Shown: piece after piece, positions 8 to 63,483 of the stretch | How the letters are laid out: every line of letters begins with the position of its first letter | Position numbering within the stretch: position 1 is the stretch's first letter | DNA from: Schmidtea nova | Lineage: Eukaryota | Assembly: GCA_044892505.1 (NCBI GenBank) | Contig: CM097883.1 | Location: 151,652,001-151,716,000, forward strand | DNA length: 64,000 nt | Direction: 5' to 3' | Made by a program: the position numbers and the translations under genes | The notes under the pieces: model-generated | Seen by the model: the letters and a program-made list of their open reading frames with translations, nothing else | What the model was told of the DNA's origin: nothing | Databases searched by the model: none

Positions 8-1080
8 TTATTTAATCAATTGTTTTTCAGATATCCAACTTGGAGTTTCATAGCCATGCCATTTAACGTAATATTGTTTATATTTCCCATCAGTTTTGGT
101 TTTTAAAATCTTTTGAATTCTAAAAACTGTGGGAGCTGGAATAACTTGAAGTTCTTGTTCGTAGAATTTACCCTCGATTACATTGTTTTCATGATCGGAA
201 ATAGTATACATGACAGGATTTTGATTAGTATCAACATTTGAGATTTGATATACTTCATCACTCCAATTACTATCAAAATTTTTGATGAAGGGAGAAGCAC
301 TGATTTTACTCATTCTCACATAATCGCCTACTTTATATTTTGGTTTTTTATTAATTGATTTTAATCTATCTTTTATCCATCCATCAAAATTATTATTTGA
401 ATATACATCGATAGGTTTCATTCTATTTAATCCCAAATGCGGTGAACGATTGTAACTGGAAATAATTTTCGGTAAAACATTTATCCATGTTTTGTTACCT
501 TGATACACAAAATACTTTTTCAAACGATCTCTTAATGTTAAAAAAGTAATAATGATTGAATAATGATTGAATAATGATTGATTCCTTTGATCACTTCTTT
601 TACTTTGCTGTTATAAAACTCTTTTCCTAAATTAAAATTAAATAATTAAAAAATTTAATTTAATTTCTTACCCAAATCAGTTTGTAAATTACGTGGCTTC
701 CCATCTTTAAATAAAGATTCAATAGCCTCAGCCATTTCATTAGCAGATTTAGTTTTTGTTGGAATAGCTCGTGCATAACGGCTAAAAACATCAATACAAG
801 TCAAAATATATTTGTAACCCTTGTTAATTTTAGAATAAGGAATCATTTCCATTAAATCCATTTGCCATAAATCGTTACCCCCAAAAGTTTTATATTTCCG
901 TGTAGGAAATCTTTTCAACATTGGTTTATTTAAACTATATGCCAATTGATCAGATAGCCATTTCTGAGTTTCATTCTTTGAACTTTTTATTCTTTTTGCC
1001 AATTTTTTGACTGAACCAAAACCATCGGGATCTTTTGGGTTTGTCCATATCGTTTTTATATTCTTCATGATTTTCTTCAT
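8..1080 (-). pseudogene. Polinton c-integrase (rve core + C-terminal chromodomain), one 45-bp intron, disrupted in exon 2
   Basis: WQMDL, LTCIDVFSRYA, LQTDLG|KEFYN across a GT-AG intron (671-627), and chromodomain-like YYVKWHGY..SWI. The ERFNRTL region is damaged near an 11-bp triplication at ~548-581. Confidence 0.88.
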
Positions 1081-1142
1081 TAATACAACAATTTGTTAAA
1101 ATATTTAAATCTATATTATGTTTATTCGGTTCAGAAATTTTA

Positions 1143-1472
1143 TTACCCATTTCTTAAAGATGAGATTGCGCTTATTGCTGATAATACTATTGGAATTAAT
1201 GTACCGAGAAACCCACCCTTTTGTTTATATATTATTTTTCGCATAAGATTTCTATTTTTGGTATTCACTAATGACAAAAGTGAATTTTTATGTTTTTGTA
1301 GTTCAATTTTCTTTGATCTACTAATATTTACATTACCATGAACAATATTAAAAACGATTTCAAGTAAATCATCAATAACAAAGGGTGGGAAAGCTTGTAA
1401 AATTGTCATTCGCTTATTTGTTGGAGCTTTAACCAAAGCATTAAAATACGGTAAACTACGTTCAAATTTCAT
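1143..1472 (-). CDS. Polinton small conserved protein (adenovirus pX-like), 109 aa
   Basis: C-terminal QKGGFLGTLIPIVLS: an xGG cleavage-like motif followed by a hydrophobic helix, as in Polinton pX-like ORFs. Lies between the ATPase and the integrase. Confidence 0.7.
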   Translation of the reverse strand: MKFERSLPYFNALVKAPTNKRMTILQAFPPFVIDDLLEIVFNIVHGNVNISRSKKIELQKHKNSLLSLVNTKNRNLMRKIIYKQKGGFLGTLIPIVLSAISAISSLRNG

Positions 1473-1502
1473 GATTAAAAGTTTTGTGTATATTTATTTC
1501 GT

Positions 1503-1664
1503 TTATAATTTTATCCACTTCTTTACTTGTTTCTTTCTTTTACCAATCTTTTTGACAACTTTTTTAACTAATTTCGATTTTTGATCAACTTTTTAAAGTA
1601 GTTTTTGATCAGCTTTTTGAACAGCTTCTTTATTTAATTTGACAATTACTTTTTTAAATGACAT
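1503..1664 (-). pseudogene. Small Lys-rich ORF (putative DNA-binding core protein) with one in-frame stop
   Basis: Manual translation MSFKKVIVKLNKEAVQKADQKLL*KVDQKSKLVKKVVKKIGKRKKQVKKWIKL; fills the gap between the ATPase and the pX-like gene. Confidence 0.4.
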
Positions 1665-1685: not shown

Positions 1686-2309
1686 TCAATTTTGTTTATA
1701 AACCGTGACTCCTTTTTCGTTAAATATATCCGTTCGGGTACGTAAATCATCAGGACATTGTTGAGTAAAATCAAAGAATAAATATCCATGAGGAACTTTA
1801 GTAGCATCTTGAAATGAATTAATTAAGAATTTCCTATCATTAGGGTAAGCTTGTCTTGCTAGAAAATCAATAATTGTAGCATCTCTTGGGTTTTTGAATA
1901 TAACCAAGTATTGAACATTTAAATTACGAGTTCTGTGACTACCACCTTGATGAAATAAATTTTGAGTAATGAAAATTACAGTAACTCCTAAATGTCTACT
2001 AATTTTTGTGAATAAATTATTAAAATCTTTTTCTTTATTTGCTTCTTGGTACAAATCATCGATAATTATAACATCGCCTTGACGTAATCTAGATGACCAG
2101 TTTTTATCAAACCCTTTTATAATTGTCATTTTTAATTTACAGAATTGATCTTGAGTCAGTCCATGTTCTTCATCAGCTCCTCTATGCCAGTAAATTTTAT
2201 TGAATTTAGATTTAAACATTTTTGATTGCAACAATTTACATACAAATAATGTTTTTCCACTACCACTCGGACCCACTATTTGATAAACTGCATCATTTCT
2301 TAATTCCAT
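1686..2309 (-). CDS. Polinton DNA-packaging ATPase (A32/FtsK-HerA superfamily), 207 aa
   Basis: Walker A GPSGSGKT, Walker B IIIDDL, then ISRH, IFITQNLF and KNPRD motifs; uninterrupted ORF. Confidence 0.92.
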   Translation of the reverse strand: MELRNDAVYQIVGPSGSGKTLFVCKLLQSKMFKSKFNKIYWHRGADEEHGLTQDQFCKLKMTIIKGFDKNWSSRLRQGDVIIIDDLYQEANKEKDFNNLFTKISRHLGVTVIFITQNLFHQGGSHRTRNLNVQYLVIFKNPRDATIIDFLARQAYPNDRKFLINSFQDATKVPHGYLFFDFTQQCPDDLRTRTDIFNEKGVTVYKQN

Positions 2310-2380
2310 TTTTATTTAATTAATTAATTATTTTAATATTGTTTAATTTAATATTGTTTATATTTATTCAATTTATAAAA

Positions 2381-2863
2381 ATGATAAGTAATATTAATTA
2401 TAAGGGCAAGTGTTTAGTTCCAAACATGTTATTTCCTGTTGGGAAACACCAGCAAGTTATAGATAGGAGCGGGAAGTACCCTATTTTATTTTTCAGATCG
2501 GGAAAATGTCGCGTAATGGGTTGTAAGCAACCGTTAAAACCAGATGATTTGAAATATAAAATTTCCGATTTAAAAATTCAATCGATCACTATAACACTGG
2601 ATATGGGTAAATCCATAAATTTATACGAATTGCAAAATAAAACAGAGTGCTGGTACGAACCCGAAATATTTCCAGCTTTGAGATTAATAAATTATAACCC
2701 AATTTGTATTAATATTTTTTCAAGTGGAAAAGTTGTAATATTAGGAATTAAAACATTGGATTATTTTAATCAAGTAAATGAAATTAAAAATTATATTAAT
2801 TCATTAATCAATAACGAATTAATTGATGAAAAATATCTCGATTTATTATTTAATTTTGTTTAA
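2381..2863 (+). CDS. Divergent TATA-binding protein (TBP)-fold protein, 160 aa from ATG 2381
   Basis: Two TBP-like repeats: ISNINY...LFFRSGKCRVMGCK and IQSITI...YEPEIFPALRL...IFSSGKVVILGIK (canonical TBP: YEPELFPGL, IFxSGKVVLTGAK). Confidence 0.85.
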   Translation: MISNINYKGKCLVPNMLFPVGKHQQVIDRSGKYPILFFRSGKCRVMGCKQPLKPDDLKYKISDLKIQSITITLDMGKSINLYELQNKTECWYEPEIFPALRLINYNPICINIFSSGKVVILGIKTLDYFNQVNEIKNYINSLINNELIDEKYLDLLFNFV

Positions 2864-2898
2864 ATAAATTGTTATTTTACAAATCCATATTTTTGAAA

Positions 2899-3287
2899 AT
2901 GTCTAAAAGTAAGTATTATTTTTAATTAACTATATTATTATTATTATTTTTTATTTAGCTTATTTATTTGAAGTAATCCTGAAGAAAATTCAAGAATTAT
3001 ATCCAAAAATAAAAGACTCTTTGGATTACTGTGCACCAGAGTTATTGGTTCATAAAATATACAAGCTTACTGGAATCAATATGGAACAATTGCTTGAGAT
3101 TCACTATGATATGGTTCTTGGATCAAATGCTAAATGCATTGAAAATTGCATAGTTTGCAATGATTCACTGAGAGTATCCTGTGTAAACGGATGTGCATGC
3201 TGTCACGATTTTAAAAGAGATCATTCGGTGCATATCTTAATGTCAGAAATGCGTAAAGCATATTATAACGACATTTATAATTTATAA
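2899..3287 (+). CDS. Spliced Cys-rich small protein of unknown function (exons 2899-2908, 2959-3287), 112 aa
   Basis: ATG TCT AAA A|gtaagt...tttag|CT gives an open frame joining the 3021 ORF. Cys cluster CIENCIVC...SCVNGCACCH. A homologous copy lies at ~16518-16715. Confidence 0.65.
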
Positions 3288-3305
3288 TAAAGTTTTGTGA
3301 TTTAG

Positions 3306-4170
3306 TTGTTCTTTATTTCAAAATTTTTCATAGTTTTTTCTAAGTTTGTTATTATTATTTTAAAAATTTTTCTAAGTTTTTTCAAAGTTTGTTATTATTA
3401 TTATTTTACAAAAATTTTTCTAAGTTTATTCAAAGTTTGTTATTATTTTTATTTTTCTAAGTTTATTATTATTATTATTTTAAAAATTTTTCTAAGTTTT
3501 NNNNNNNNNNNNNNNNNNNNNNNNNNNNNNNNNNNNNNNNNNNNNNNNNNNNNNNNNNNNNNNNNNNNNNNNNNNNNNNNNNNNNNNNNNNNNNNNNNNN
3601 NNNNNNNNNNNNNNNNNNNNNNNNNNNNNNNTTCAAAGTTTATTATTATTATTATAATTATTATTATTATAATTATTATTATTATTCAAACTGAACCGAA
3701 AATATAAAAGTTTATAAAAATAAATTAAAATAAATATAAATTAATTTAAATAAATTAAAAATAAATATAAATTATTAAATATAAATTAATTAAAATAAAT
3801 TAAATATAAATTAAAATTAAAATAAATATAAATTATTAAAAATAAATAAATTAAAATAAATTAAAAATAAATATAAATTAAAATAAATAAAAAAAATAAA
3901 TTAAAATAAATTAAAAATAAATTAAAATAAATAAAAATAAATTAAAAATAAATAAAATAAATAAAATAAAATAAAGACTTCATTTAAACAAAATAATAAA
4001 TTAAATTGACTTCATTTAAACAAAAAATTTAAATTTAAAAAAATCACTTCATTTAAACAAAATAAAAAATTCACTTTATTTAAACAAAATAAAAAATTAA
4101 AAAATTTCACTTTATTTAAACAAAAAAAATTTTTTAGGGGGGGTAAAAAATTTTTTAGGGGGGAGGAGGG
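3306..4170. repeat. AT-rich tandem arrays of the Polinton terminal repeat region (includes N-gap 3501-3631)
   Basis: Repeated ttttctaagttt...attattatt units, aaataaattaa tracts, several cacttcatttaaacaaaa-like units and G-runs next to the terminus. Confidence 0.65.
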
Positions 4171-4202
4171 GTCCTGTTCTTGGGCGCTCCCCCTACTCTA
4201 CT

Positions 4203-4982
4203 TACCTGATATAACAGAAACAGGCGAATCATCCGATGTACTTGTAAATAGTGACACTCACACGATTTCCTCAACTGTCATAGCGGATCCGTTATTTATA
4301 GACTTGCAAAAAAGAATATCTTCCATTATGACAGTTCCAAGCCCGAAAGACATTTCCAAGGAATCATTGCAGTTAAATAAAGATTTCAAATCATTTGAAT
4401 CTACCAAAGAACTTACGCCAAATCTAGAAAAATTATATAAAGCATTATTAACGATTAAACCCACTTCAACTGCAAGTGAAAGTGTATTTAGTGTTGCTAA
4501 TAATTTTTGCACCAAAATTAGAAATTCTATGCACCACAATACACTTGATGCGTTAGTTTTCTTAAAATATTATTTTTTAAATAATATATAAAAAATGTGT
4601 GTGATATTTTATTTTAAAAGTAATAAGTATTGTAAATTTCTCTTTTTCTTACATTTTGATATTTTTGTTCATTATGATGAATTTTGTTGTATATTTTTTA
4701 CAATGTACGTATAACTTCTCTTGTTCACCGACTTTGAAAACAAAAATAAAAGAATTATTTCCTCTTTACGTGTTTCATTACCTATTTATATTTATTGATT
4801 ATATCTATTTTTAAACAATCAAACTATTAACATATAATTTTAACAAATTTTAACATTTTTTTTAATTTTGCAAATTACTTACTTGATTTTCTGAGGATGG
4901 TTTTAACCGGTTAACCGGTTTTTGATACGTAAAATACCCGAAAACCGGTTTGTGCTTTTCCTCCGGTTATTTAGATGCCCTA
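4203..4982 (+). mobile_element. hAT DNA transposon 3' fragment (dimerization domain + right terminal repeat)
   Basis: LLTIKPTSTASESVFS...IRNSM hATC motif, subterminal AACCGGTT repeats, and terminus ...TTAGATGCCCTA (TAGGG-type TIR) at 4982. Confidence 0.8.
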
Positions 4983-6832
4983 GGTGAAGGTGTTAAAGTT
5001 GATGAAGCTAAAATCGAAGCAATAAAAGGGTTTCAAAGACCAAAATGTTTAAAACAATTAAGGAGTTTCTTAGGACTATGTAATTATTACAGAAAATTTA
5101 TAAAGAATTATTCAAAATTTTCACGAATATTAGAATCGATGTGTGGAAACAATAAAGACAAATTAGTTTGGTCACAAGAATGTGAAGAAAGTTTTGAGGA
5201 ATTGAAGAAAGCATTAGCAACTACACCTGTTCTAACATATCCTGATTATAAGAAAGAATTTATTCTGGATACAGTTGCTAGTTTCGACACCATAGGAGCT
5301 GTTCTGCCACAAATTGATGATTTAGGTAATGAACGTGTTATTGCCTATGGTTCACATACGATGAGTAAACATGAAATAGGATACTGTATCATGAGAAAGG
5401 AACTTCTAGCAATTTATTACTTTGCACAGCATTTTAAGCCTTATCTTTACGGAAAGCGATTCCAGCTAAGAACGGACCACAAAGCTATAACATTTATGAT
5501 GACAACTAAAAAGCCTATAACAGCACAATTTCAGACATGGATAAACTTCTTGAGTAGTTTAGATATGGATATTAAATATCGAAAAGGAACGGACCATTCG
5601 AACGCTGATGCGTTATCGAGAGATAAATGTGGGAGATGTACTCAGTGTATGGAAATTCATAAAGATCCAAAAACAGAAAAAGTAAAAACCAGATTGTTGG
5701 CAATGACAGCTGCTAAATAAGGATTTCAATGGCAAAAAGGTAATGAAGAGATAGAATTTATGAGAAAAACAATTAATAAAAATGAGACTACAAGATTTAA
5801 AATCGACGAAGATTTAATTTTAACAAGAGAAAATAAAATTTGGATTCCAAAAGAAAATAGAATTGAATTTGTGAAAAGCATGCACAAAATGTTGTGTCAC
5901 GCTGGGTGTAAGAAGGTAATCGATTATATTAAAGTTAATTACGATATGGAAGAATTAAATACAATCGTGACTCAATATATACAAAGTTGTGAAATATGGC
6001 AGAAAAGAAAAACTTTGACAACAAAAACAAAAGAAATAATTGTAAAAACAGAAGTTGTGGAACCTTTTGAAGTTAAAGCGATAGATTTTTGTGAACCTTT
6101 ACAGACGAACATTCATGGAAAAAAATATATTTTGGGAATTATTGACATGTGTAGTCGATACATTTCGTTAACAGTAGTTGCAAAACAAGATGAAAAAACT
6201 ACAGCGGATACTATTATGAAATTCTGGATATTAAAATATGGGGCACCTAGAATTATTCAAGTTGATTGTGGCAAAATATTTGAGTCTAACTTGATAAAAG
6301 AGTTGACAAAGAATCACAATATACAGCTACAATTTTCGAGCCTTTATCATCATAATACTAATGGTTTGATTGAAAGACAATTTCGAACAATACGAAATTT
6401 TATCAGTGCGTCATTAAAAGACAAACTTAAGAGGAATTAAGTTGAAGTATTACCTGAAATCGAATTTACTTTAAATGCAACTATTCAAAGCACAATTGGA
6501 AAGAGCCCCTCAGAAGCAGTATTTGGTTTCCGGATATCTAGAGAATGTAACAATAATAATAGAAGATACAACGATAGAAGTAAAATAGTGGACGAAATAC
6601 AATCAAAACAAAGAAATTTAAGTTATAAAAATGAGAACCAGATACACCGAAAATTTGATATAAATGAAGAAGTTTTGGTTAAAATAGATGTGAGAAAAAA
6701 TGAGGAAGACCGATATATCGGACTTTTACGGTTGTTAGAAAGATACATGAGAATAGCTATGAATTACGAGACAGAGAAGGAAAAATGATGGTGCGCAACA
6801 TTGAATGGCTAAAATCTTTTCAACAATGGGTA
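4983..6832 (+). pseudogene. Ty3/Gypsy pol 3' part (RT connection, RNase H, H2C2 zinc finger, integrase) with in-frame stops
   Basis: LRSFLGLCNYYRKFI, RKELLAI, RTDHKAI, HSNADALSR, HKMLCHAG, IIDMCSRY, QVDCG, NGLIERQFRTI. Confidence 0.92.
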
Positions 6833-7949: not shown

Positions 7950-8340
7950 TCCATTTAAAAAGGCAGTCATCTTTCATTGTCAATAGAAAACAACTGGAAG
8001 GTTGTCCATATCTCAATTCTGCATTAAGCAGTATCGGTTAAGCGTGTATGAACCATTTCTCTGACTTTAAGTTATAAGTCTCAATTGCACTTTCAATATC
8101 ATCCTTGTAGATTCCAACAGCTGCTCTCATGAACATGTGTTGTGGTCGTCCTACGACCTTGTCAGCGATTCCTAAGAGATAAGACCTTTTCAGCGTTTCA
8201 AATCCGGAATAATCAATAGTACTGTCTAGAGTTTCGGCATTTTTCATAACGTTCTCATAGATATCATCTGCAATGATGGTATTTTATGACTGGTATTGAC
8301 ACTTGGTCCATGACATAAATCATAAATAACGTCTGATTTA
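7950..8340 (-). pseudogene. RRM1: Ribonucleotide reductase large subunit fragment
   Basis: [41 protein letters not shown]...SSCFLLTMKDD match eukaryotic R1. Contains a stop, a frameshift and a small deletion. Confidence 0.88.
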
Positions 8341-8344
8341 GATC

Positions 8345-8804
8345 CATTTCTAATTTGTGTTTGCCTTTCTTGATTATCAGAAAGAGAAGTTAGATCGGTT
8401 TTCTTGAAGATAATGACATTGACGAGCGATATTTGTCTGATGCATTCATTGATATCCTCATTACTGTCCTGCAGCTCTGCAATCTGAGATTCAACCTGAA
8501 ATCCATCTATAACAGTCTCTATTCCATCTAGATATAAATCGCAGTAAAGACGTTCATCCAACAAAAACAATGCAGCAATAGTTCCAGGATCTGCTAGTCC
8601 GGTTGTTTCAATTAATATATAATCAAATTTTCCACGCCTTTTCATTAAGTTTTCTAGAGCTTTCACGCCAACATCTTTAATTGAACAGCACAAACAACCA
8701 TTTAAAAGCTCTAGCCATTCTTCATATAGAGCTCCTGAAGCTTTTACATCATTTATTTTAATACAAGATCCATATCTTTTAATAACATATATGAATTTAA
8801 ACAT
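8345..8804 (-). pseudogene. CBWD: COBW-domain zinc-chaperone GTPase (CBWD/ZNG1) internal fragment
   Basis: LYEEWLELLNGCLCCSIKD, FDYILIETTGLADPG and KKTDL (G4-like). The N-terminal Walker A region is absent. Confidence 0.88.
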
Positions 8805-12669: not shown

Positions 12670-13690
12670 TTGAGTAAAGTGAATCGGTATAATTTACGAA
12701 GCAAATGCAAAAAGGAACCCATGATGAGCAGTGAAGATTTGCCAGTGTCAGTAGTTAAAGAAAATAATGATTTTGCAATTTGTCAAAGATTACCTGTGGA
12801 ACAATATGGAGGAGATCCAATTATTTTTGTAGATTTTATGAGCGATTACTATATGTATGCAACGGCGTACGGATGGTCTCAAGCGATTATTATTCAGAGA
12901 TTTCCATTATGTATTAAAAGAGCAGCTAGAGAGGTTTGGCAACAGATTGATAAGAAAGTAATCGGCAATGATTGGACAAAGTTGAAAGACGCGTTAGCTA
13001 CGAAACCTATCGGAGGAGATATCAAAAGATAAATGCGTCCAAGGTTCTATAGAAGAGTTCAAAATCCAAATGAAACAGTGAGCAAATTTGCTTATCGTTT
13101 GTCAACCCTCGCAAGTAAATCATTTGAGGAAGATTCGAAACAACCAGGCCTAGCCCAACAAATGCAAGAGTTAATCCAAGACCAATTTTTGTCAGGAATA
13201 AATAAAAAGATAAAAACCGTATTATGCTGTGTAGATTATGATAATTTTGATGAACTAGTTAAAAAGGCAATGAAAATCGAATTAAATTTAAAAAGCACCA
13301 AAAACAAATCTGATGTGTTCGCGATTTTTCCAGCTCAAAGAGAAAGATCAGTCACACCAACCCAAAACAATTGGGAGCCAGAAAATAGATTCCAACGATC
13401 AAAAAGCCCATCACGCAAATGGAGAACCGAGGTAAATAAAAATAGACCAAGCCGTAATTTTCAAGGCACTGAGAGATCCAGAGTGATTCAGTGTGAAAAT
13501 TGCAAGAATATTGGCCATTATGCGAACCAGTGTTGGTTCAAAAATAATTCTGATAGTGCACCCAGGAGAATAACCCAAGATTATCGTACAAACGATAGGG
13601 GAACAAACTTCCGGAGAGCAGTTCCTGATGTTAAATCCAATTTTAATGAAGTACAATGTTATCGCTGTGGTAGAAAAGGACATGTTTCAG
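12670..13690 (+). pseudogene. Retrotransposon gag with CCHC knuckles, one in-frame stop, truncated
   Basis: RRVQNPNETVSKFAYRL, CENCKNIGHYANQC and CYRCGRKGH. Sequence reverts to hAT transposase at ~13690. Confidence 0.85.
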
Positions 13691-16517
13691 AAATTATTTT
13701 TCAAGATCAAGATCATCCTCAACATATAAGAAAGAATAATATTTTTTGTCAGAGTAGATGGAGTTCAAAATTTACCCTTGAGAGGGCAGTCTCATCGGTT
13801 ATATACGCCTCATAATAGTAACATTTTGAAACCTTTTGAAGTTATTGCTGAATTTGATCCGACAATGAAAGAACATATAAGACTTATAAAAGCAAATGAA
13901 ATTCATAACCATTATTTAAGAAAAAATATTCAGAATGAGATTATTCAACTTTTGAGCAAAAAGATAAAACAGAAAGTGATAAATGATTTAACAAATGCAA
14001 AATATTACTCTATAATTCTCGATTGCACACCAGACGTCAGTCATAAAGAACAGGTGACAATGATTGTTAGATTTTGTTAAAGGAAATGAAGCAACTACTG
14101 ACAAACTTTCAGAATTTCCTATCAATGAACATTTTTGGATTCGTAGAACTTGAAAAATCTACAGGTGCAAGTATGGTGGAAATTTAACTTAAAGAACTAT
14201 CAGTACTATCAGATTAAGAAATTTATCTATATGAGATGACATGGCTATGATAGTGAAGCAAACATGCGGGGAATACATAATGGTGTCCAAGCAAGAGTTA
14301 GAGAGCTAAATTGAAGCCAATTGTCCCGTGCAATGCACATTCATTGAATTTGGTAGTTAATGATGTATTAAACTGTTGTTTGGAAGCATTAACGTTTTTT
14401 GATTTAATTCAATATACATAAACTTTTTTTCTGCATCAACACATCGCTAGAATGTATTGTTAGAACATGTCAAAAACAAAGAAGCTGTAGGTTTAACTGT
14501 TAAAAAGTTATGCACAACATGCTGGGAAAGTCAAGTTAATGTTGTGAAGGTAATTCGATACCTAACAGTTGAAATTTACGATACACTCGTTTCAATTGCT
14601 GACGTTTCACTTACTGGACAACACGGAACCCAGTCAAGTGTAGAAGCTAAGGGAATTGCACAAAAAATGTTCGATTTAAAATTTGTTTGTTCATTAGTGA
14701 TTTGGTATGATATTTTATTTGAGGTCAATATATCTAGCAAAACATTTCCAAAAGAAAGATCTTGATTTAACGAAATCAATTCAGCAATTGAATGCAACTA
14801 AAACTATGCTCCAGAATTACAGAACAGTTGAAGGATTTTTAAAGCAATTACAACAGCTAAATCATTGGCAGAAAACTTGGTATTGAGTGTACTTTCTATA
14901 TGGAAAGAGATAATTTGACTATGAAGTTTTAGATGATGCAATTCTTGAGCCAGAAAAGAATTTTAGAGTAAATATTTTTAATCAGATCATTAGTACCGCA
15001 TTTCAATCAGTTAATGATTGGTTTATGCCGTTAACATCTCACAGTGACTTATTTGGATTTTTGTATGACATTAAAAATGTGAAAAAAAGAAGTTTTCAAA
15101 GATTGCATGGACCCTCAATTAGTTTTAAAATCTGAAAACGAGAATTCAGCAGACATTAAAATAACAGAATAGTGCTGAGTTATTTGCTTTATTAAGAAGA
15201 ATTACTGAAACATCAAGCCCCAGAGTTATATTTGACTATCTATGTGGAATGGGCTTGGTTGCTCTTTCTACAAACATATATGTCGCATTGCGAATTTTGC
15301 TTACACTCCCGATAACAGTTGCGAGTGCAGAAAAAAGCTTATCGAAGCTCAAACTCATAAAAATATATCTTCGTTCTAACATGTGTCAGGATCGTTTGGT
15401 TGATTTAGCTACCATATCTATAGAGAGCCGATTGCAGAATAGTTGGATATGACCGAAATAATTCAGGAGTTTGCTTCTGCAAAAGCTAAAAAACATATTT
15501 TTTATAAAATCAACTAATAAATACTTTTAGTGTTTTATAAATATACCATTTCAAACATTTTTGTTTTTCATTACTTTTTAAAGCAAAAAAGACTTCTTAA
15601 AATCAACTTGTAGGAATATACAATAAACTAATGAATTGAATTCATAATATTTATTAAGTAACAAATTGCTTAATGATTCTGTCGACGAAATATGCAATCC
15701 AGTTGATGGTAGGACTGTCGTTGAGTTTGACGAGATTCCAGATACGAACTGTTTTGTCAATGTTTCAGAAACAGTGTTTGTGATAGTGTTTTTAAGTTGG
15801 AGTAAATTAACTTCGCAGTAGAACTAGTTGAAACGGCATTTCGAAAAGCCGATTTTGATTCACTGGTGGATATAGTTAATGATGTTTGACCATATGAGAA
15901 TCATGTTAAAGAAACTATTGTTTTTGGTTTCTTTTCGATTGAGAGAGAAATAAATGTTGAACTTGTCATTTTTTGAATATCGGGAAAAAGATGTCAAAAA
16001 AAAGTGCATATTAAAACAATGCCATTTAAACTCTCATTCAATAATTATTTAATAAGTTAATTAATTATAAAAAAATTTATAATCCAAGGCACTACACAAC
16101 TACCTATAGGCCTATTAAAAACTATTAACTTTTATAAAGTTGTTGTTGAAGACTTGTAATAAAATTATAAAAATTTCACATTTTCACATTTTGAATTTAT
16201 CCTTCAAAATAAATACAAATTAAAGATTTTTCTTAGAAAACTGAACCCAATAAAGGAGGCATTTCTATCCTTGCCTATAGGACAAAATTATCTAAGGCCG
16301 TCACTGTTCTTTAATGAGTATTTTGTTAATTTGGTTTACTTGTGTTTTTTGTACTTACTTCTTGCTAATGTTTATATTAAACTTTACTTTACTTTTACTT
16401 AATTTTTTCCTGTTTCTAATAATTTTTGTTTATTTGGTGTTTACTGACATATTTAAGTATACTTCTTGCGCGGTCTCTACATGCTATATCAGCGCTCACT
16501 TCCAGATTGATGGGATT

Positions 16518-17600: not shown

Positions 17601-20600
17601 TTATGTAAATTGAGGCCTAGCCGACGCGTGCTTTTTAAGCACATCGAAAAATTTATTTTTTTTCACGGCTGGTTTCAGTATTTGAAAGGAACACATTAGC
17701 GTCTCGTCTACCGACATCATGGCACCCGCATTATCAAACTCGCCACAATAATTTGGGGCTGAAAATATCGTTACCAGTTTTCTTTTGGCAAAAAATTCAT
17801 ATCCATCTTCGACAACTTGATGAGCTCTTAAGAAAAGATTTATATGAAAGAGAAATATATATATTTCATAGAAGGATTTTATTATTTCTTTGAGTAGAAT
17901 AAAATATATTAACACCAAATGTTTGGGACTCTGGATTAAAAAGGGTGTTTGAACCATTAAAGACGCACGACGCGAATAACATTTTATTTCCATCAAACAA
18001 TTTGTCCCTCAAAACAGCATCAATTCGCTTTACAAAGCATTCCAGACAAATAGATTCCATTGCCGAATAAGAAACCAATCGGCCTCCAAATGTTTCATTT
18101 TTTAGCAAATAAGTGAGCAACTCGAGTTTGTTATTATTAAATTGTTGTTTGTAACGAACACTACGTAAAAGAATAGAAAAAGGCTCTCTGTGATTTGTTT
18201 GGCTATTGATTTGAGACCCAGAAAATCAGCGCGCTTCAGGGATTTGGATATCGTTATTGAGCTTCAATATCAAGCTTTGCTCTGAATACAAACTCCAATA
18301 CGATAAGATGAGTTCGACAATATCCTGCTCAGCGATCGGCAAACTATCCAAAGAAAAGGTTTCAGTTCCAGATTGCTGTGGAATATAGAATTTAGATGAT
18401 ATCATTTGATATGTTGCATAAATGTCATCATATTGTATTGGAAATAGAACATATCGTTTCTCGTTTGATGTCAATAATGGCTCATTTCTGTCTAATATTT
18501 CAGCTCGCCGCTCCTTCGCAAAATATTCAGAAAAACTCCAACCGATAGCGGAACACAAAAACATCTCCCAACTTCCAAAAATTGCATCGCTAACAAAACC
18601 ATAAATCATAACTCATAAAATTCATAATAATCATAAAATCAATTCAATCTTCAATATCAGTTCATTAAACATATACAACAAGCCATGCGCACACAAGCGC
18701 CAACAACACCACAATTCATGCGCAAACATGGGCCGAAACAAAGGGGAATTAAGGTGGTGGTGGAGAAAGTTAATTTAAAATTTACTTATTAACCTGTTAA
18801 CCGAGCGTGACATATAAATACGTCAAACGTAAACAGTATCGGGTACGGGTAGGACATATGAATACGTCCTTGAAATATATGTTGTGCCCTAGAACGGGCG
18901 GGACATATATTTCCGAGCAACAAAAGTATTAGTCATGCGTACAGTCTTCATGCAAATACGCGTGCCCGTTGTGTGTTGCGCAATTGAAGTCGAGAGCGCC
19001 CGGTTAACAGGTTAAATATCATTAAAATCTTTAATCTGTTTCACTTTAGATTCTTTTTATTTGATTTTTAAAAATGTTTTTCACATTATCAAAATATTTT
19101 CTCTTAAAATAAATAATATAAATAAAATAAATAATAGATGCAAAATTTATTTCTTTGTTTTCGGATGACTGCCTGATTAAATGAAATCCAAAATGTGATA
19201 TTTCTAATGACAGACCGATGGTGATACAAATGATTCTCTCTCTCGCTCTCTCTCGCTCTCTCTTGCTCTCTCTCTCTTGCTCTCTCTCGCTCTCTCTTTT
19301 TCTCTCTCTCTCTCGCTCTCTCTTTTTCTCTCTCTCTCTCGCTCTCTTATGTCTCTCACTCTCACTCTTAATCCAAAATGTGATATTTCTAATAACAGAC
19401 CGATGGTGATACAGATGATTCTCTCTCTCCTCTCTCCTTTTACTCTTTCTCTCTCTCCTGTCTCTCACTCTCTCTCTTTCTCTCTCTCCCAATCCAAAAT
19501 GTGATATTTCTAATGACAGAACGATGGTGATACAGGTGATTCTCTCTCTTCTCTCTTCTCTCTCTCTCTTTTTCTCTTTCTCGCTCTCTCTCGCTCTCTC
19601 ATGTCTCTCACTCTCAATCCAAAATATGATATTTCTAATAACAGACCGATGGTGATACAGATGATTCTCTCTCTCCTCTCTCCTCTCTTTCTCTCTTTCT
19701 CTTTCTCTTTCTCTCTCACTCTCTCCTGTCTCTCACTCTCACTCTCAATCCAAAATGTGATATTTCTAATGGCAGACCGATGGTGACACAGGTGATTCTC
19801 TCTCTCACTCTCTCGCTCACTTTCTCTCTCACACACATTTTCAAGAATAGGCCGAAAACCTGTGATTGCACCAGTTTATTGATCAATTATCATCGGGTTA
19901 TAAAAAATTTATCTTTCCAGAAAAATATTATCCGAATTTTCATTTAAAATTGTTTAAATTTGTTAAAAAATAAGTTTGTTATAATCTTTCAAGTTAATTG
20001 GTAGTTGGATTATTTTATTAGTATGGGTATGGTTAAAACATTTGAGATTTTGGCACACGTTTTAGATGGGAAAATATTAAAAATAGAAGGTAAAATCTAA
20101 ATTTTACCTTGACAGGCTACAGAGAGCCAGTGAAATCTATTATTTATTATATTAATGATAAATACTCAAAAAAACTAAAAAAGATGAAAATTTTGAATTT
20201 AAATATAAATGAAGAGATATTTACCTACATATGAGATCAAGGTCTTGAACTTGGAGAAATTTGTCAACTACGTCTGATCCAAATGTATGACTAACCCCTC
20301 TTTCGTTTTCTGCCCAACCAACAATGTCTCTATCTGGATCAGACCACAACAAATCACATATTAAACCATCATCTGGTACTTCTCTTGGCCTACTGATTTC
20401 TTTAATTTGTTTTAAACTGCGCAATTCTGGTGATAAACCACCGTGAAAACATATTATTTTTTCATCAATTAGCGCAGCAAACGGTAACGCGTTGAAACAA
20501 TCTGTGAAAATTTTCCATAGCCGTATATTATAGCGACGCTTACACTCATCGTAGAATCCATAGATTCTGTTAATTGCAGCACTTTCGTGATTGCCTCTGA

Positions 20601-45260: not shown

Positions 45261-48193
45261 TAGTGTTGGGAATACTGGGATCCCGGTATTTGGAACAATA
45301 TATAGTTGCCGAAATACCGGTATTGAAAAAGTCGAATACCGGTATTTCGGTATTCGAAATAAGTTCACCATTCGAAATAATTTCACCAATATAATGTTTT
45401 TTATGGTTTTTTACTACAAAAAAATATTTGCATTATTATTTCTTAATGCGAAAAAACAGCAATCTAGTATTATATGAAAAGTTTAAAAGTTCAATTGTTT
45501 AAAAATATTCGTATTATTGTTTCTTAATGCGAAGAAACAGCAATCTAGTATTATATGAAAAGTTTAAAAGTTCAATTGTTTAAAAATATTCGTATTATTG
45601 TTTCTTAATGCAAAGAAACAGCAATCTAGTATTATATGAAAAATTTAAAAGTTTAGTTGTTCTTATAAATCGAAACAAAATCTATATTATAGATTATTTT
45701 TACGTACTACTATAATAGTTAAATTAAAATATTATTATATAAAATTCGAAACGGTAAGTAAAATATTTTCTTTTTAATCAGAATATGAATTATACATTTT
45801 ATTATCGTGTTTCGAACTTTTAGAAAATTTGTACTTTACACCGATATGAATATTCAAGATTTTGAGGAGCATTCCAAAGCAAATGATAAAAATTCACCAT
45901 GGTTTCATTTTCTAAGAGAAAAAGCAGGACAGTGTGCTAAATGCAAATGGTGTAAGAGAATAATAAAAACACATGGAGGTTCTACAAGCGGTCTTCATAC
46001 CCATTTAAAAACAATTCATGAAATCAATTTATTGAAAAGAGATGTAGGTAGCACCACTGTTTTAGATTCTTCAGAATTTGTACAGAAATCAAAACCTTCT
46101 GTAACTATAAACAACTTTTTTAAAAGTGATAAAATGGATGACTCATTGCCAGCTATTTTAGCTAGGATGACTGCGTGTGATGGTTTATCGTTCAACATTA
46201 TCTGCACTTCATATGATATCAGAAAAGGCTTAACAGCCAGAGGCTTTTCTAACATACCAAAAGATCACAAAACAATTCAAAAAATGGTTTTGAATTACAG
46301 TCGAAATATACGAGATCAAGTAATTAAAGAATTATCGTGCAGAATTGCTAATGGAAACAGATTTTCTCTTACTTTCGATGAATGGACATCGGTAAGAAAT
46401 AGACGTTACATAAATATTAATGTCCACTCTGACAAAGAATTTTGGAATCTAGGATTGATTCGTGCTTTTGGAACAATTCCAGCAGAAAAATGTGTTGAGC
46501 TTGTGAATGATAGGTTAGGTGATTTCGAGCTTTCGATGAACAATATTGTAGGTATTACCACTGATGGCGCTGCAGTTATGACAAAGGTTGGCAGGTTAAT
46601 TGAAGCACATCAGCAGCTATGTTTAGCGCATGGAATTCAGTTGGCTGTTATCAGCGTACTCTACAAAAAACCTATTAATGAGGCTAGTCTGCATAATGAA
46701 GAAGATGCCAACGTTACATCTGTTCCCACACCCAGATTTGAAAGACAGCAGAATTCCACAGATGACGACGAATTAATTGATGAAGATTAGGGAAATGAAA
46801 ATGGTTTACTTATTATATCCACTGAAAATGATGATGATAATTCTTCTTTTCTGGTACATCAGCAAATGTTACCATTAATTAAAAAAGTTCGTAAAGTGGT
46901 AAAAATATTTCGAACTTCGCCTACAAAAAATGACAAAATCCTACAAAAATATATAAAAGAAGAGTTCGGGAAAGAATTGTCTCTGGTTTTAGACTCAAGA
47001 ACACGATGGAATAGTTTAGTGTCTATGATAGAACGTTTCATCAAATTAAAAAATTGCATCAAAAAGAGTCTAATAGATTAAAAATCACCTATTTTGTTTT
47101 CAGATGGCGAGTTTGAAATGTCACATATCCTTTCAGTTTTACTTCCCATTAAGCTTACAGTTGAAGCAATCTGCCGACAGGATGCAACTTGGTTATCTGC
47201 AGATGCTGCTATTCAATTTATGATGAAATCAATAACTGACCATCCATGTTCATTAGGTTATGAATTGAAAGCAGCTTTAAAAGTACGTATTCTTCAAAGA
47301 CGAACAGAAATTTCAAGTGTTTTGCAATATTTACATGATGCAAACTGCAATGAAAATCCAAGCGATGATGAATCCGATAAAGATTATGAATTATTTCCGA
47401 TCATTACCAAAGCTGCAATCGCAAAAGTTATTGTTCTACAGATACAACGTTTGGGTATGCCCAACTTGCATTATGAAGCTGCACCTGTAGCTACAACATC
47501 TACTTCATCCAACGTTTCAAATTCAGATACAAATATATTATTCAATGTCGATGATGATGAAGATGATCAAAGAAATGAAATATCTCTGACTTTACAAGAA
47601 AAGTTGGAGAGGGCAATATCAAAAAAAATTTGCACCAGATTACCTGAAAGTGGAATCGACCAAAACAAAAATGATCTCACACGCTCAATAAAAAAAGAAA
47701 TGTCATTTTTTGAGACAAATGGCATAAGAGGCAAATACTTAACTTTATTATATAATTATTTGCTAAGTATTCAACCGACCAGTGTAGAATCGGAGAGAGC
47801 TTTTTCGGCAGCTGGCTTAATCTGCACCAGAATTCGGTCAAGGTTGAGAGATAATTCGCTCAACAATCTATGTTTTCTCAGGTCTTATATCAACAACCAA
47901 CTACAGAAAAAGTAGAATCTTAAAATTTTATGTCTTCATCCTTTTCTTATAAATAATATATATAACTAACATTTTACTGAATTTTGTTTTTACATTTATC
48001 TAATTTTTATTCTTTAAATAAATAAATTTAGTTTTTTTTAATTGGCAAACAATTTTTTAATTAAATTTATTTATTCATTCGTATTATTATAGGAAAAATA
48101 ATAATACCGGTATTAATACCGGGATCCCGGGATTACAAAAATCCAATACCGAAATACCGGTATTGGATTTTTGGTCCGGTATTCCCAACTCTA
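45261..48193 (+). mobile_element. Full-length hAT transposon (BED finger + DDE + hATC), copy 1
   Basis: TIRs TAGTGTTGGGAATAC / rc TAGAGTTGGGAATAC, exact 8-bp TSD CTACAAGC, subterminal ATACCG motifs, and three 81-bp tandem repeats at ~45430-45670. Confidence 0.95.
45807..47915 (+). pseudogene. hAT transposase with two in-frame stops (46788 TAG, 47079 TAA)
   Basis: BED finger CAKCKWC...L.THL..IH; FSLTFDEWTS; ITTDGAA; CLAH; DSRTRWNS; IQPTSVESERAFSAAG. All three ORFs are in one frame. Confidence 0.92.
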
Positions 48194-49429
48194 CTACAAG
48201 CTAACTTTGGCTGAAACAATAATAATAATAAAATAATAATAATATTAATAATAATTTATGATTTTAATTTTATTATTATGGTAATAAATTTATGATTACT
48301 ACAAGAATAAATTTATTTCACGGGGAAATTCATGGAAAATTTAAAGATTATCCAATAAACAATTCTGCAAAAGTTAAATATTAAAAAATTAAATGAATCA
48401 TTTTCATGGAAAATATTCACATGCAGAATATTGCAACTGTGCCTTGCGATTTTCATATTATTTTTTTTATTTCTCGCTCTTAGGTGAATCGAGATTTATT
48501 GATTTTTTAACGTTAAACAAATCCCAGTTGCCGAGATATCCCGTTGACATTTGCAGGCTCATAGACACGCACAGATGCTCACACAGATACACTCACAAAC
48601 ACATTACACTAGGTCATGAATTCAAGGGTATCATCAGTGATTATCGCATTCACCGACTGCAATATAAAGAATTTCATCCATTCCTAATTGACATCTTGCC
48701 TTGAAAATCAGGTCAACTAGTAATCATCATACAACAACAAACCGACAGGGACGAGAAAAATATCGCGTTACTCGTCTCGATCTAATGATATTCTGTATAT
48801 TTATTGCAAAATCTGTCGATATGTCTACCAGTTATTATCTGCCAATGTCTACCGGTGCGTGTGCATCGATCGAGCCAGCACACAACTCGATTTTTAAAAA
48901 TTCAATTTCTGTTCAGGAAAAACAAACACTCTAGCGCCTATCTATTCTCAGTTTCCAAATCTCAGCAGCCATGGTTTGATTATTTTTTGTTGTTGTAGAT
49001 ATTTTGTTATAATTTCCCTTTTCCCAACCTACTCGACAGGCACCCAAAACCAAAGAAAACACCACTCTCAAAGCTAAAGTCAAAAGCAAATCCCCTGTTT
49101 CAATTGACAATTCTGTGTTCACCTAAAATCCTCAGAAAACGCCCAATCATTTCGATGCCGATGAAGATTTCGGTTCGAGCGATGAATAAGTAAAGGCAAG
49201 TTAAAAGATTCGATTATAATGGTAGTTTATGCTTTTGTTTTTGTATTCCGTTCATTTAATTGTAATTTTTTTCAGAGGTACCAGCAGAGGAGATTAAGAT
49301 TGATAATAAAATTGAACATTTCTCACTATTATTTATATTTCTTACAGCAAAAGCCCTATGGCATTTGACTTTGGAGCAATTCGATGCTGCTATCATTTTC
49401 TTCGTAAGTTTTAGTCAAAATAATAGTAA

Positions 49430-49433
49430 TATC

Positions 49434-49481
<48 letters not shown>

Positions 49482-49520
49482 CATAATAATAACAATAATG
49501 ATAATGATGATGATAATAAT
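49430..49520. repeat. (AAT)n microsatellite
   Basis: Long AAT run grading into GAT; one unit longer in the duplicate copy. Confidence 0.95.
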
Positions 49521-50029
49521 ATTAGATGGGTCAATACGCCCATGCGGTGATTACAGACTCCTGAACTCAGTCACGAAAGTCGACAAATATCCTCTGCCCA
49601 GAATAAGCGATATCTTAGATCAATTCGGGGGAAGCAAAGTATTTTCAACGATCGATTTAGAAAAGCCATATCACCAAATCCCAATTGAAGCAAAGGACAT
49701 CCCGAAAACCGCAATAATTACCCCTTTTGGATTATACGAATACCTCAAAATGCCCTTTGGACTGAGGAACACATCACAAACACATCACAGTTTTTTCTCT
49801 AGGAAGCTCAATAAAACTGAACAAAGATATTCAACATTTGACCGAGAACTATTAGCTGCCTATTTAGCTATCAAAAACTTCAAACATCACCTGGACGGCA
49901 GCACATTCGAATTACTAACCGATCACAAGCCATTGGTATATATAAATACTATGAAAGATCCATCTAATAGACAATGGAGATGGATCCAGTTTTTAAACGA
50001 ATTTGTGGTAAAAATAATTCACATTAAAG
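49520..50029 (+). pseudogene. Gypsy RT N-terminus fused in frame to an RNase H fragment, cut by a hAT-type end at 50030
   Basis: RPCGDYRLLN, YPLP, FSTIDL, MPFGLRN joined to FFSRKL...YSTFDRELLA...TDHKPL; YxDD segment absent; CAGTGGTTTCCAACC begins at 50030. Confidence 0.88.
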
Positions 50030-61644: not shown

Positions 61645-62884
61645 CTACAAGCTAACTTTGGCTGAAACAATAATAATAATAAAATAATAATAATATTAAT
61701 AATAATTTATGATTTTAATTTTATTATTATGGTAATAAATTTATGATTACTACAAGAATAAATTTATTTCACGGGGAAATTCATGGAAAATTTAAAGATT
61801 ATCCAATAAACAATTCTGCAAAAGTTAAATATTAAAAAATTAAATGAATCATTTTCATGGAAAATATTCACATGCAGAATATTGCAACTGTGCCTTGCGA
61901 TTTTCATATTATTTTTTTTATTTCTCGCTCTTAGGTGAATCGAGATTTATTGATTTTTTAACGTTAAACAAATCCCAGTTGCCGAGATATCCCGTTGACA
62001 TTTGCAGGCTCATAGACACGCACAGATGCTCACACAGATACACTCACAAACACATTACACTAGGTCATGAATTCAAGGGTATCATCAGTGATTATCGCAT
62101 TCACCGACTGCAATATAAAGAATTTCATCCATTCCTAATTGACATCTTGCCTTGAAAATCAGGTCAACTAGTAATCATCATACAACAACAAACCGACAGG
62201 GACGAGAAAAATATCGCGTTACTCGTCTCGATCTAATGATATTCTGTATATTTATTGCAAAATCTGTCGATATGTCTACCAGTTATTATCTGCCAATGTC
62301 TACCGGTGCGTGTGCATCGATCGAGCCAGCACACAACTCGATTTTTAAAAATTCAATTTCTGTTCAGGAAAAACAAACACTCTAGCGCCTATCTATTCTC
62401 AGTTTCCAAATCTCAGCAGCCATGGTTTGATTATTTTTTGTTGTTGTAGATATTTTGTTATAATTTCCCTTTTCCCAACCTACTCGACAGGCACCCAAAA
62501 CCAAAGAAAACACCACTCTCAAAGCTAAAGTCAAAAGCAAATCCCCTGTTTCAATTGACAATTCTGTGTTCACCTAAAATCCTCAGAAAACGCCCAATCA
62601 TTTCGATGCCGATGAAGATTTCGGTTCGAGCGATGAATAAGTAAAGGCAAGTTAAAAGATTCGATTATAATGGTAGTTTATGCTTTTGTTTTTGTATTCC
62701 GTTCATTTAATTGTAATTTTTTTCAGAGGTACCAGCAGAGGAGATTAAGATTGATAATAAAATTGAACATTTCTCACTATTATTTATATTTCTTACAGCA
62801 AAAGCCCTATGGCATTTGACTTTGGAGCAATTCGATGCTGCTATCATTTTCTTCGTAAGTTTTAGTCAAAATAATAGTAATATC

Positions 62885-62935
<51 letters not shown>

Positions 62936-62973
62936 CATAATAATAACAATAATGATAATGATGATGATAATAA

Positions 62974-63483
62974 TATTAGATGGGTCAATACGCCCATGCG
63001 GTGATTACAGACTCCTGAACTCAGTCACGAAAGTCGACAAATATCCTCTGCCCAGAATAAGCGATATCTTAGATCAATTCGGGGGAAGCAAAGTATTTTC
63101 AACGATCGATTTAGAAAAGCCATATCACCAAATCCCAATTGAAGCAAAGGACATCCCGAAAACCGCAATAATTACCCCTTTTGGATTATACGAATACCTC
63201 AAAATGCCCTTTGGACTGAGGAACACATCACAAACACATCACAGTTTTTTCTCTAGGAAGCTCAATAAAACTGAACAAAGATATTCAACATTTGACCGAG
63301 AACTATTAGCTGCCTATTTAGCTATCAAAAACTTCAAACATCACCTGGACGGCAGCACATTCGAATTACTAACCGATCACAAGCCATTGGTATATATAAA
63401 TACTATGAAAGATCCATCTAATAGACAATGGAGATGGATCCAGTTTTTAAACGAATTTGTGGTAAAAATAATTCACATTAAAG
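62974..63483 (+). pseudogene. Gypsy RT/RNase H fusion fragment, copy 2
   Basis: Identical translation to the 49498-50070 ORF. Confidence 0.88.

Follow-up and report, generated by a model that had tools for sequence, protein, structure and literature searches.

The uninterrupted open reading frame at 2381-2863 encodes a reduced TBP-fold protein, hereafter mini-TBP, that is kept across a lineage of Polintons. We conclude that mini-TBP is a real, selected and element-encoded variant of TBP, and that its elements carry what, judged by sequence, is a matching candidate promoter code built on the heptamer TATAAAC. It is probable (about 0.7) that mini-TBP is the element's own promoter factor, one that would bind TATAAAC and recruit host TFIIB and Pol II to the virion genes. 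Positions are those of the window, the stretch of 64,000 nucleotides that was analysed.

A multi-copy Polinton gene of the TBP fold

The Pfam profile PF00352 matches the mini-TBP frame in two stretches (E 7.4e-17; score 61.4 bits, cut-off 22.9), and all 35 of the PDB sequences matched by the protein are TBPs or TBP fusions. An AF2 model built from a 25-row alignment has a pLDDT of 92.5 and forms the two-lobed saddle, with both beta-sheet lobes present. A Foldseek search with this model returned 44 matches at E<=0.001 with TBPs on top, the TM scores being 0.63-0.70 among the matches listed. VIA-align placed residues 1-145 of the model onto residues 66-240 of yeast TBP with Z 12.6-12.8 and an rmsd of 2.6-3.1, this range, and not the single residue equivalents inside it, being computed. 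In the same comparison 38 TBP rows scored Z 10.8-13.0, and the first non-TBP row scored Z 6.8. The original prediction of a TBP fold containing both repeats is therefore borne out by strong matches in both the profile search and the structure search.

The gene lies inside a 16,052-bp insert, as had been proposed, with terminal repeats and the hexamer TACCTG enclosing the frame on both sides. The right end of the element reads ...CTACTCTACT at 4202 and is followed by TACCTG, and the left end, at G000 C2:151640151, is preceded by TACCTG. These are Polinton-type termini, comprising terminal inverted repeats (5'-AG...CT-3') and a 6-bp target-site duplication; another copy of the element measures 15,489 bp, and its inverted repeats about 850-960 bp. 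Directly past the element, a hAT dimerisation domain picks up again. The part of the insert that falls within the window is laid out as follows.

8-1080, minus strand: rve integrase with a C-terminal chromodomain, split over two frames here and 361 aa in another copy
971-1150, minus strand: 59-aa Met-Gly ORF that precedes the integrase
1143-1472, minus strand: protein of 109 aa with an adenovirus pX-like C-terminus (Adeno_PX E 1.1e-5), likely a virion core protein
start at 1664, minus strand: short Lys-rich ORF, <40 aa in the window copy and 53 aa in two other copies
1686-2309, minus strand: A32-like packaging ATPase, 207 aa (Pox_A32 E 1.2e-6)
2381-2863, plus strand: mini-TBP gene, 160 aa
2913-3287, plus strand: Cys-rich frame downstream of mini-TBP, 124 codons from stop to stop
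3300-4202, no strand: terminal inverted repeat of the right end, holding AT-rich arrays and a masked stretch; its left border is approximate
4203-4208, plus strand: target-site duplication TACCTG, 6 bp, repeated at the left end (G000 C2:151640151)

A gene of the 345-aa family runs on leftward beyond the window. Of the core set of the lineage, the rve integrase, the A32 ATPase and the pX-like protein are in the window, pPolB (DNA_pol_B_2) is found in a sister family in this genome and an adenain-like protease (Peptidase_C5) in locus L146; the capsid is of the double jelly-roll type, as judged from an alignment led by L146 that matches PBCV-1 at E 8e-16. Pfam gave no match for ORF138, ORF219, the Cys-rich frame, or the 345-aa and PW families, and the ESM Atlas no usable match for ORF138 or ORF219. 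Set against other copies, the window copy has split or shortened frames for integrase, capsid and polymerase; this makes the insert defective, but mini-TBP is intact in it.

The mini-TBP and ATPase genes are divergent, with starts 71 bp apart in the window, in agreement with the earlier description. Any special meaning of this head-to-head layout is not upheld, since only 2 of the 15 metagenome loci with an ATPase have it; elsewhere mini-TBP lies on the same strand upstream of the ATPase, or after the capsid and protease genes. ORFs related to the Cys-rich frame follow mini-TBP in the families of this genome, and none was seen in 54 metagenome loci.

An exact 35-mer of the mini-TBP gene occurs 368 times in the genome (control 0), giving at least 368 copies, and all 150 scored mini-TBP matches are at 98-100% identity. 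The ATPase adjoins mini-TBP in 30/30 loci fetched from near-identical matches, and among 23 more divergent PF00352 loci it is present in 20, with a member of the downstream ORF219 family in all 23. The host TBP genes are separate: two have introns, two more are intronless and TBP-like, and none lies beside Polinton genes. A host gene that happens to sit beside the element was accordingly rejected as an explanation, given that mini-TBP is multi-copy and Polinton-linked while the host TBP genes are elsewhere.

Between families dN/dS is 0.15-0.18 for mini-TBP (49 whole frames from 55 loci) and 0.07-0.22 for the ATPase, which supports an element-encoded TBP under purifying selection and goes against the neutral decay that the original prediction had named as refuting it. 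A value of 0.01 obtained among near-identical copies was dropped since those copies had been picked for protein identity. In the first 40 listed copies carrying the 35-mer, 29 mini-TBP frames are whole and 11 broken, and dN/dS is 0.19 for shared variants against 0.70 for private ones, a difference that marks selection during spread and drift after insertion. The near-neutral private variants and the 11 broken frames would also be expected of a captured host gene in neutral decay. This is extremely improbable, however, because such decay is the expected fate of dead inserts, and the ATPase of the 40 sampled copies behaves alike (private-variant value 0.52, 17/40 not intact), whereas the shared and between-family values show selection and the mini-TBP clade branches deeply and apart from the host TBPs. 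The window copy itself carries a private, non-Phe variant at position 23, which is Pro in 40/40 sampled copies.

Beyond this genome, a word-indexed search found 30 mini-TBP homologues at 40-72% identity, and a profile search found 56 representatives at E<1e-30 among the 150 matches listed. A core Polinton gene is next to mini-TBP in 22/54 metagenome loci; in 15/54 there is only ORF138 or an exonuclease-like gene, and the other 17, on contigs of 1-3 kb, gave no match. No neighbour gene is common to all TBP-bearing loci of the metagenomes and this genome. Alignments of mini-TBP, the ATPase and the capsid recovered no related loci in a viral contig collection or in a phage collection. In a FastTree tree of 144 rows, 132 fall into one group (SH-like 99) that is apart from the host TBPs and includes every one of the 11 short forms whose Polinton context is known. 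This tree, with its few full-length rows and no named viral TBPs, gives no origin, whether host, archaeal or giant-virus.

Conserved DNA face and lost surfaces

Mini-TBP matches the TBP family profile yet lacks three defining features of canonical TBP, namely the four intercalating Phe, the symmetric Asn pair and the basic patch of helix H2. Residue signatures were counted in 122 rows of the mini-TBP family and 13 full-length TBPs. Three Phe are almost invariant in the family (F38 119/119, F97 121/122 and F113 121/121), and these are the ones in the EIFP, IFSSG and FFRSG motifs picked out in the original prediction, which had also noted the repeat-2 change of Asn to Ser. The claim that the intercalating Phe are retained holds for three of four, as the first N-lobe Phe is lacking family-wide, being found in 7/119 family rows against 11/13 full-length TBPs. 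The N-lobe Asn is kept in 107/113 rows, and its C-lobe counterpart is Ser or Thr in 122/122.

The description of repeat 1 as shortened was correct and can be refined: in both the model and the family alignment the N-lobe helices H1 and H2 are missing. The H2 segment has 19 residues in mini-TBP (family median 22) against 32 in full-length TBPs, and a long helix is absent at this segment of the AF2 model, and with it the H2 basic patch. Section 12 of PMC7221094 describes this patch as a common site for TFIIA, TAF1, Brf1/2 and Mot1. With one Phe, one Asn and two helices gone, mini-TBP might bend DNA weakly or not at all, which would tell against a promoter factor.

Other positions on the DNA face are near invariant in the family, above all R44 (119/120), M46 (121/121) and N111 (121/121), together with S/T68 (122/122) and Thr/Ser70 (120/122); Asn6 (86/114) and Arg101 (89/122) are further positions of this face. 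The C-lobe stirrup of mini-TBP reads E93-P94-E95, with E/D93 in 116/122 family rows and E95 in 120/122. Two stirrup Glu form the TFIIB contacts of TBP according to section 11 of PMC7221094. Mini-TBP is thus a natural experiment on which surfaces of TBP are dispensable (H1, H2, one Phe and one Asn), and it also points to residues that may retune TATA recognition.

Two classes of promoter in the element lineage

The heptamer TATAAAC occurs in the window at the following sites.

76-82, minus strand: TATAAAC, 80 nt before the next gene (345-aa family)
1223-1229, minus strand: TATAAAC, 79 nt before the 59-aa Met-Gly ORF
1501-1507, minus strand: TATAAAC, 35 nt before the pX-like gene
1694-1700, minus strand: TATAAAC, in the last Tyr-Lys-Gln codons of the ATPase and 36 nt before the Lys-rich ORF
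2356-2362, minus strand: TATAAAC, 53 nt before the ATPase start and within the 71 bp between it and the mini-TBP start

The site before the ATPase is present in 31 of the 32 sampled copies that have an ATPase start, and the terminal Tyr-Lys codons of the ATPase spell TATAAAC in 26/26 rows, related rows included. The word falls in different reading frames of overlapping genes.

Upstream regions across the lineage were compared using one gene per 80%-identity cluster, the interval -60..-20 and dinucleotide shuffles as the null; gene starts were picked automatically, a few of them wrongly, and the motif had first been seen by eye, largely in the loci later counted. Counted in this way, TATAAAC precedes 12/14 ATPase, 8/10 pX-like, 7/9 capsid and 8/13 exonuclease-like genes, where the shuffles gave means of 0.05-0.32 and maxima of 1-2. 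It is the top 7-mer of the virion-side upstream regions (35/46), lies mostly at 32-49 nt and is never antisense. In the same interval it was found before none of the mini-TBP (0/39), ORF138 (0/5), integrase (0/8) or 345-aa family (0/9) genes. All eight PW genes have it at -98..-107, and exceptions among virion-side genes include the L146 ATPase with the word at -96 and the L146 protease at -78. Locus L146, which was fetched after the motif had been noticed, has mini-TBP and 11 sense words against 0 antisense, some of them further upstream. The deep-branching member L097 has the Arg, Met and Asn common to the clade and CATAAAC at -37.

Two classes of promoter can be recognised. In class 1, made up of mini-TBP and ORF138, a canonical TATA box stands 35-47 nt before the ATG with an Inr-like TCA and often CCAAT. 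Class 2 contains the ATPase, pX-like, major capsid, PW-family and protease-following exonuclease-like genes; here the word (T/C)ATAAAC(A/G) stands ahead of the ATG, mostly by 32-49 nt and always in sense orientation, and Inr and CCAAT are absent. Within 54 upstream regions we counted TATAAACA 42 times, TATAAACG four times and CATAAACA three times, all of them sense. A canonical TATA box precedes 18/39 mini-TBP genes (8.2 expected). The Inr-like TCA, a pattern chosen after viewing the rows, follows about 30 nt downstream in 17/23 canonical boxes (2.7 expected) as opposed to 5/49 (T/C)ATAAAC words (3.1 expected), and CCAAT is found in 16/44 class 1 against 3/41 class 2 upstream regions. The class 1 pattern is clear mainly in less AT-rich loci, and no clear box was found in mini-TBP's own promoter in this AT-rich genome. 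As read from these upstream sequences, the two gene classes are cleanly told apart by the C at position 7, with TATAAAC before 35/46 virion-side genes and 0/44 mini-TBP and ORF138 genes. The word also helps to annotate small virion ORFs in these elements.

As a control, the same genome contains a group of Polintons with a PLA2-integrase and a DJR capsid. No TBP-like frame was found in three 20-kb stretches of this group, and in two of the stretches TATAAAC at -60..-20 preceded 0/33 ORFs. A fourth PLA2-integrase stretch holds a nested copy of the window's family. The distant Polinton contig L148 encodes a 185-aa full-length, four-Phe TBP (Pfam E 1.3e-36) that lies outside the clade and has no close relative in the protein database. 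No TATAAAC was found at -60..-20 in L148, and at -39 of its pX-like gene, where the mini-TBP lineage has TATAAAC, it has TATAAAAGG, as does L147. With two or three lineages behind these controls, gene and motif could simply have been inherited together.

Candidate roles of mini-TBP and relation to known systems

Under the reading that mini-TBP is the element's promoter factor, host TBP/TFIID would transcribe class 1, so that mini-TBP is made first. On the DNA face, Val/Thr/Asn/Leu of TBP have given way to Asn6, Arg44, Met46, Ser/Thr68 and Asn111; these residues would then tune mini-TBP to a TATA variant in which position 7 is C, and the protein would be expected to prefer TATAAACA over TATAAAAG. 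TBP and TFIIB are a textbook pair. The kept stirrup glutamates would dock TFIIB, and since hardly any family member lacks them and the element copies gave no match to TFIIB, the partner would be that of the host. A search of the genome with PF00382 gave six TFIIB matches, none at element scale. The host TFIIB core is split by introns, and the long open frame of L190 is, by its motifs, presumably a BRF1-type paralogue. Loss of H2 would remove the patch for TFIIA, TAF1, Brf1 and the evictor Mot1 and make mini-TBP TFIID-independent; with neither TFIID nor TFIIA it could then recruit host TFIIB and Pol II and turn the virion genes on. One gene of 480 bp would in this way drive a cascade of two steps, early to late, in which 'early' and 'late' are assigned by gene content.

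The original prediction had offered redirection or decoying of host Pol II or Pol III, or binding of the terminal arrays, as possible functions. The evidence points to redirection of Pol II towards the element's own promoters. It lends no support to Pol III, as the H2 patch used by Brf1 (its role being given in section 12 of PMC7221094) is deleted, or to the AT-rich terminal arrays, as 3290-4202 contains only one TATAAAC.

It is conceivable that a host factor reads the word, be it a Forkhead protein or, with the word as a weak TATA box, host TBP or a paralogue, and that mini-TBP only assists or does another job. TATAAAC is one base off a canonical TATA box, besides its two TBP genes with introns the host has two TBP-like genes without, and co-occurrence controls are few. 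ATAAACA, contained in TATAAACA, fits the consensus of a Forkhead-type site, and GTAAACA would be allowed by Forkhead as well. In addition, a TATA variant with C(-25) is the DNA in a crystal structure of wild-type TBP, going by the title of 1qn3. However, GTAAACA occurs 0 times in sense and once in antisense in the 54 upstream regions, against the 42 occurrences of TATAAACA; the strict orientation and spacing of the word fit a core promoter and not an enhancer site; and a split of the two classes by C at position 7 is not required by host TBP alone. A host reader is therefore unlikely in our view, and a generic Forkhead enhancer was rejected on account of the missing sense GTAAACA and the strict placement of the word. 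Slightly less likely is a repressor or decoy that sits on virion promoters or titrates host TFIIB, quieting the copies or damping host transcription. The lost Phe and TFIIA surface could give a non-productive complex, and the copies spread as integrated elements, but the TFIIB stirrup and the C-lobe are almost invariant and the known viral TBP mimics described in the available text of PMC8360532 activate. Moreover, class 2 has no Inr, CCAAT or other evident activator site, and something must therefore recruit Pol II there.

Binding of mini-TBP to the AT-rich terminal repeats for replication or packaging, with the promoter word unrelated, would suit a gene that in this genome stands near the terminal repeat and beside the ATPase. 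That position is not conserved in the metagenome loci, though, the terminal region has a single TATAAAC and a TFIIB-type stirrup would be needless, so that this role is quite improbable and was rejected. An element-encoded promoter factor thus remains the preferred reading. We lean, if only slightly, towards a wider version of it, in which a lineage of 15-16-kb Polintons, itself widespread, has its own early-to-late switch run by one TBP of 150 residues, with host regulatory surfaces shed, the TFIIB dock kept and a private TATAAAC box; this would be the smallest known retargeted TBP-promoter pair and independent of the herpesvirus and giant-virus solutions, with L148 as the canonical alternative state. 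The question bears on how Polintons switch on their capsid genes, and on whether they are self-sufficient viruses or passengers of a helper virus; from a conserved element TBP and a word to match, one would expect a programme of two phases that the element runs by itself. The handles on it are a protein of 160 aa, a site of 7 bp and two classes of promoter distinguishable from sequence, and TBP and promoter are a candidate orthogonal pair.

The elements resemble known Polintons, Mavericks and adintoviruses, as presented in the available text of PMC8502044, PMC8097293 and PMC11131425, in their termini, 6-bp duplication, pPolB, integrase, ATPase, protease, DJR capsid and pX-like protein. In the same texts TBP is not one of the eight genes that make up the vertebrate Maverick core, and VLTF3 is a transcription factor reported in some polintoviruses. 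The main texts of PMC11131425, PMC8097293, 10.64898/2026.10.13.758929 and 10.64898/2026.06.19.733378 do not mention TATA or TBP. TBP had tentatively been thought undescribed as Polinton cargo; this needs qualifying, as the label 'TBP' appears in the legend to Fig. 5 of PMC8502044 for MELD viruses with an adintovirus-like PolB, and in two legends of the preprint. Section 3.4 of that paper does not discuss it. The TBP so labelled may belong to the mini-TBP clade. In the openly accessible literature covered, we found no account of a Polinton mini-TBP clade or of TATAAAC.

Compared with cellular and archaeal TBPs (1ytb, 1cdw, 2z8u), mini-TBP has the same saddle over 142-145 residues (Z 12-13, 25-30% identity) and keeps three intercalating Phe, the N-lobe Asn and the stirrup Glu-Pro-Glu. 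Unlike them it is about 30 residues shorter, belongs to a subclade without H1 and H2 and is mobile and multi-copy; it also has no first N-lobe Phe, Ser/Thr in place of the C-lobe Asn, and a DNA face with invariant Arg, Met and Asn. With the TBPs of nucleocytoviruses it shares a virus-encoded TBP fold that is free of the N-lobe regulatory signature of eukaryotes, with structural matches at E 4e-8 and weaker and 9-22% identity. In PMC7221094, viral TBPs are said mostly to lose the stirrup Glu and to pair with their own TFIIB, the first Glu being kept in ~40% (section 11), and nucleocytovirus TBP-like proteins to be without the eukaryotic N-lobe regulatory signature (section 12). In contrast to what that account gives, mini-TBP has both Glu almost without exception, and no TFIIB was found in the element.

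The late TBP mimics of beta- and gamma-herpesviruses are functional analogues in the proposed model, as they too pair a viral TBP-like protein with a private TATA variant: according to the available text of PMC8360532, HCMV UL87, KSHV ORF24 and EBV BcRF1 read TATT ~30 nt upstream of late genes and use host Pol II with TFIIB. Those mimics are large, act in a six-member viral complex and bind Pol II directly, whereas mini-TBP is a stand-alone, single-domain protein of 150-160 aa. We propose that mini-TBP would work like the herpesvirus mimics but is not one of them; BcRF1 is a weak structural match to it (E 0.014).

A full-length TBP in a distant Polinton and TBP-like genes of the host

TBP genes separate from the mini-TBP gene were present in a distant Polinton contig (L148) and in the genome assembly of the window itself (G000):

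L148:11568-12122 (-), full-length TBP, 185 aa
L105:1207-1818, G000 C1:473.81 Mb, intronless divergent host TBP-like gene
L106:1285-1737, G000 C2:358.71 Mb, intronless divergent host TBP-like gene
L104 and L107, G000 C1:277.62-277.63 Mb, second intron-bearing TBP gene and its near-copy

The L148 protein has all four DNA-intercalating Phe residues, and the boxes of its contig, which is assigned to a bacterial MAG, are the canonical TATAAAAGG. Since this TBP falls outside the mini-TBP clade, Polintons may have acquired TBP more than once or may have retained an older state.

The L105 and L106 genes have no Polinton genes as neighbours and group among host TBPs in the tree; the L105 protein lacks both N-lobe Phe residues. 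They are possible lineage-specific TRF-like paralogues. The near-copy of the intron-bearing gene lies 11 kb away, inverted and interrupted.

A TBP-less Polinton group and small ORFs of the mini-TBP Polintons

A second Polinton group in G000, with a PLA2-integrase and a DJR capsid, carries no TBP:

L137-L144, G000 C1:252.7 Mb, C1:255.1 Mb, C3:104.6 Mb and C2:266.6 Mb

Many of its genes have TATAAAA/AATAAA immediately abutting their ATG, an arrangement that may represent another kind of start signal. At some sites this group and that of the window are inserted within each other.

Two small ORFs occur in the mini-TBP Polintons:

window 971-1150 (-), 59-aa ORF with a Met-Gly-Asn N-terminus and Cys-Cys, preceding the integrase
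L037:7596-8012, ORF138, a conserved gene

The former lies ahead of the integrase and downstream of a TATAAAC word in the window, L054, L091 and others; judged by its start alone, it is possibly an N-myristoylated virion peptide. ORF138, found in 17 of the 54 metagenome loci, frequently adjoins the mini-TBP gene and has a canonical TATA+Inr promoter, is not beside the mini-TBP gene in the window's family, and had no match in Pfam or Atlas.

Insertion site and other features of the window

The Polinton interrupts a hAT transposase gene, parts of which flank it on both sides. Other features included ORFs and fragments recognised by eye:

window 4328-4591 (+) and L032:6691-7621, hAT transposase parts
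window 4980-6440 and 12721-13815, fragments resembling LTR-retrotransposon RT/RNase H/integrase and gag (by eye)
window 8244-8804, ORF, partial likeness to CobW-type GTPase (by eye)
window 17601-17993, ORF, partial likeness to PP1-type phosphatase C-terminus (by eye)
window 18226-18609, ORF, partial likeness to ribonucleotide reductase small subunit (by eye)
window 45352-49521 and 58803-62975, same tandem-repeat set

The recurrence of the tandem-repeat set 13,451 bp apart suggests a local duplication.
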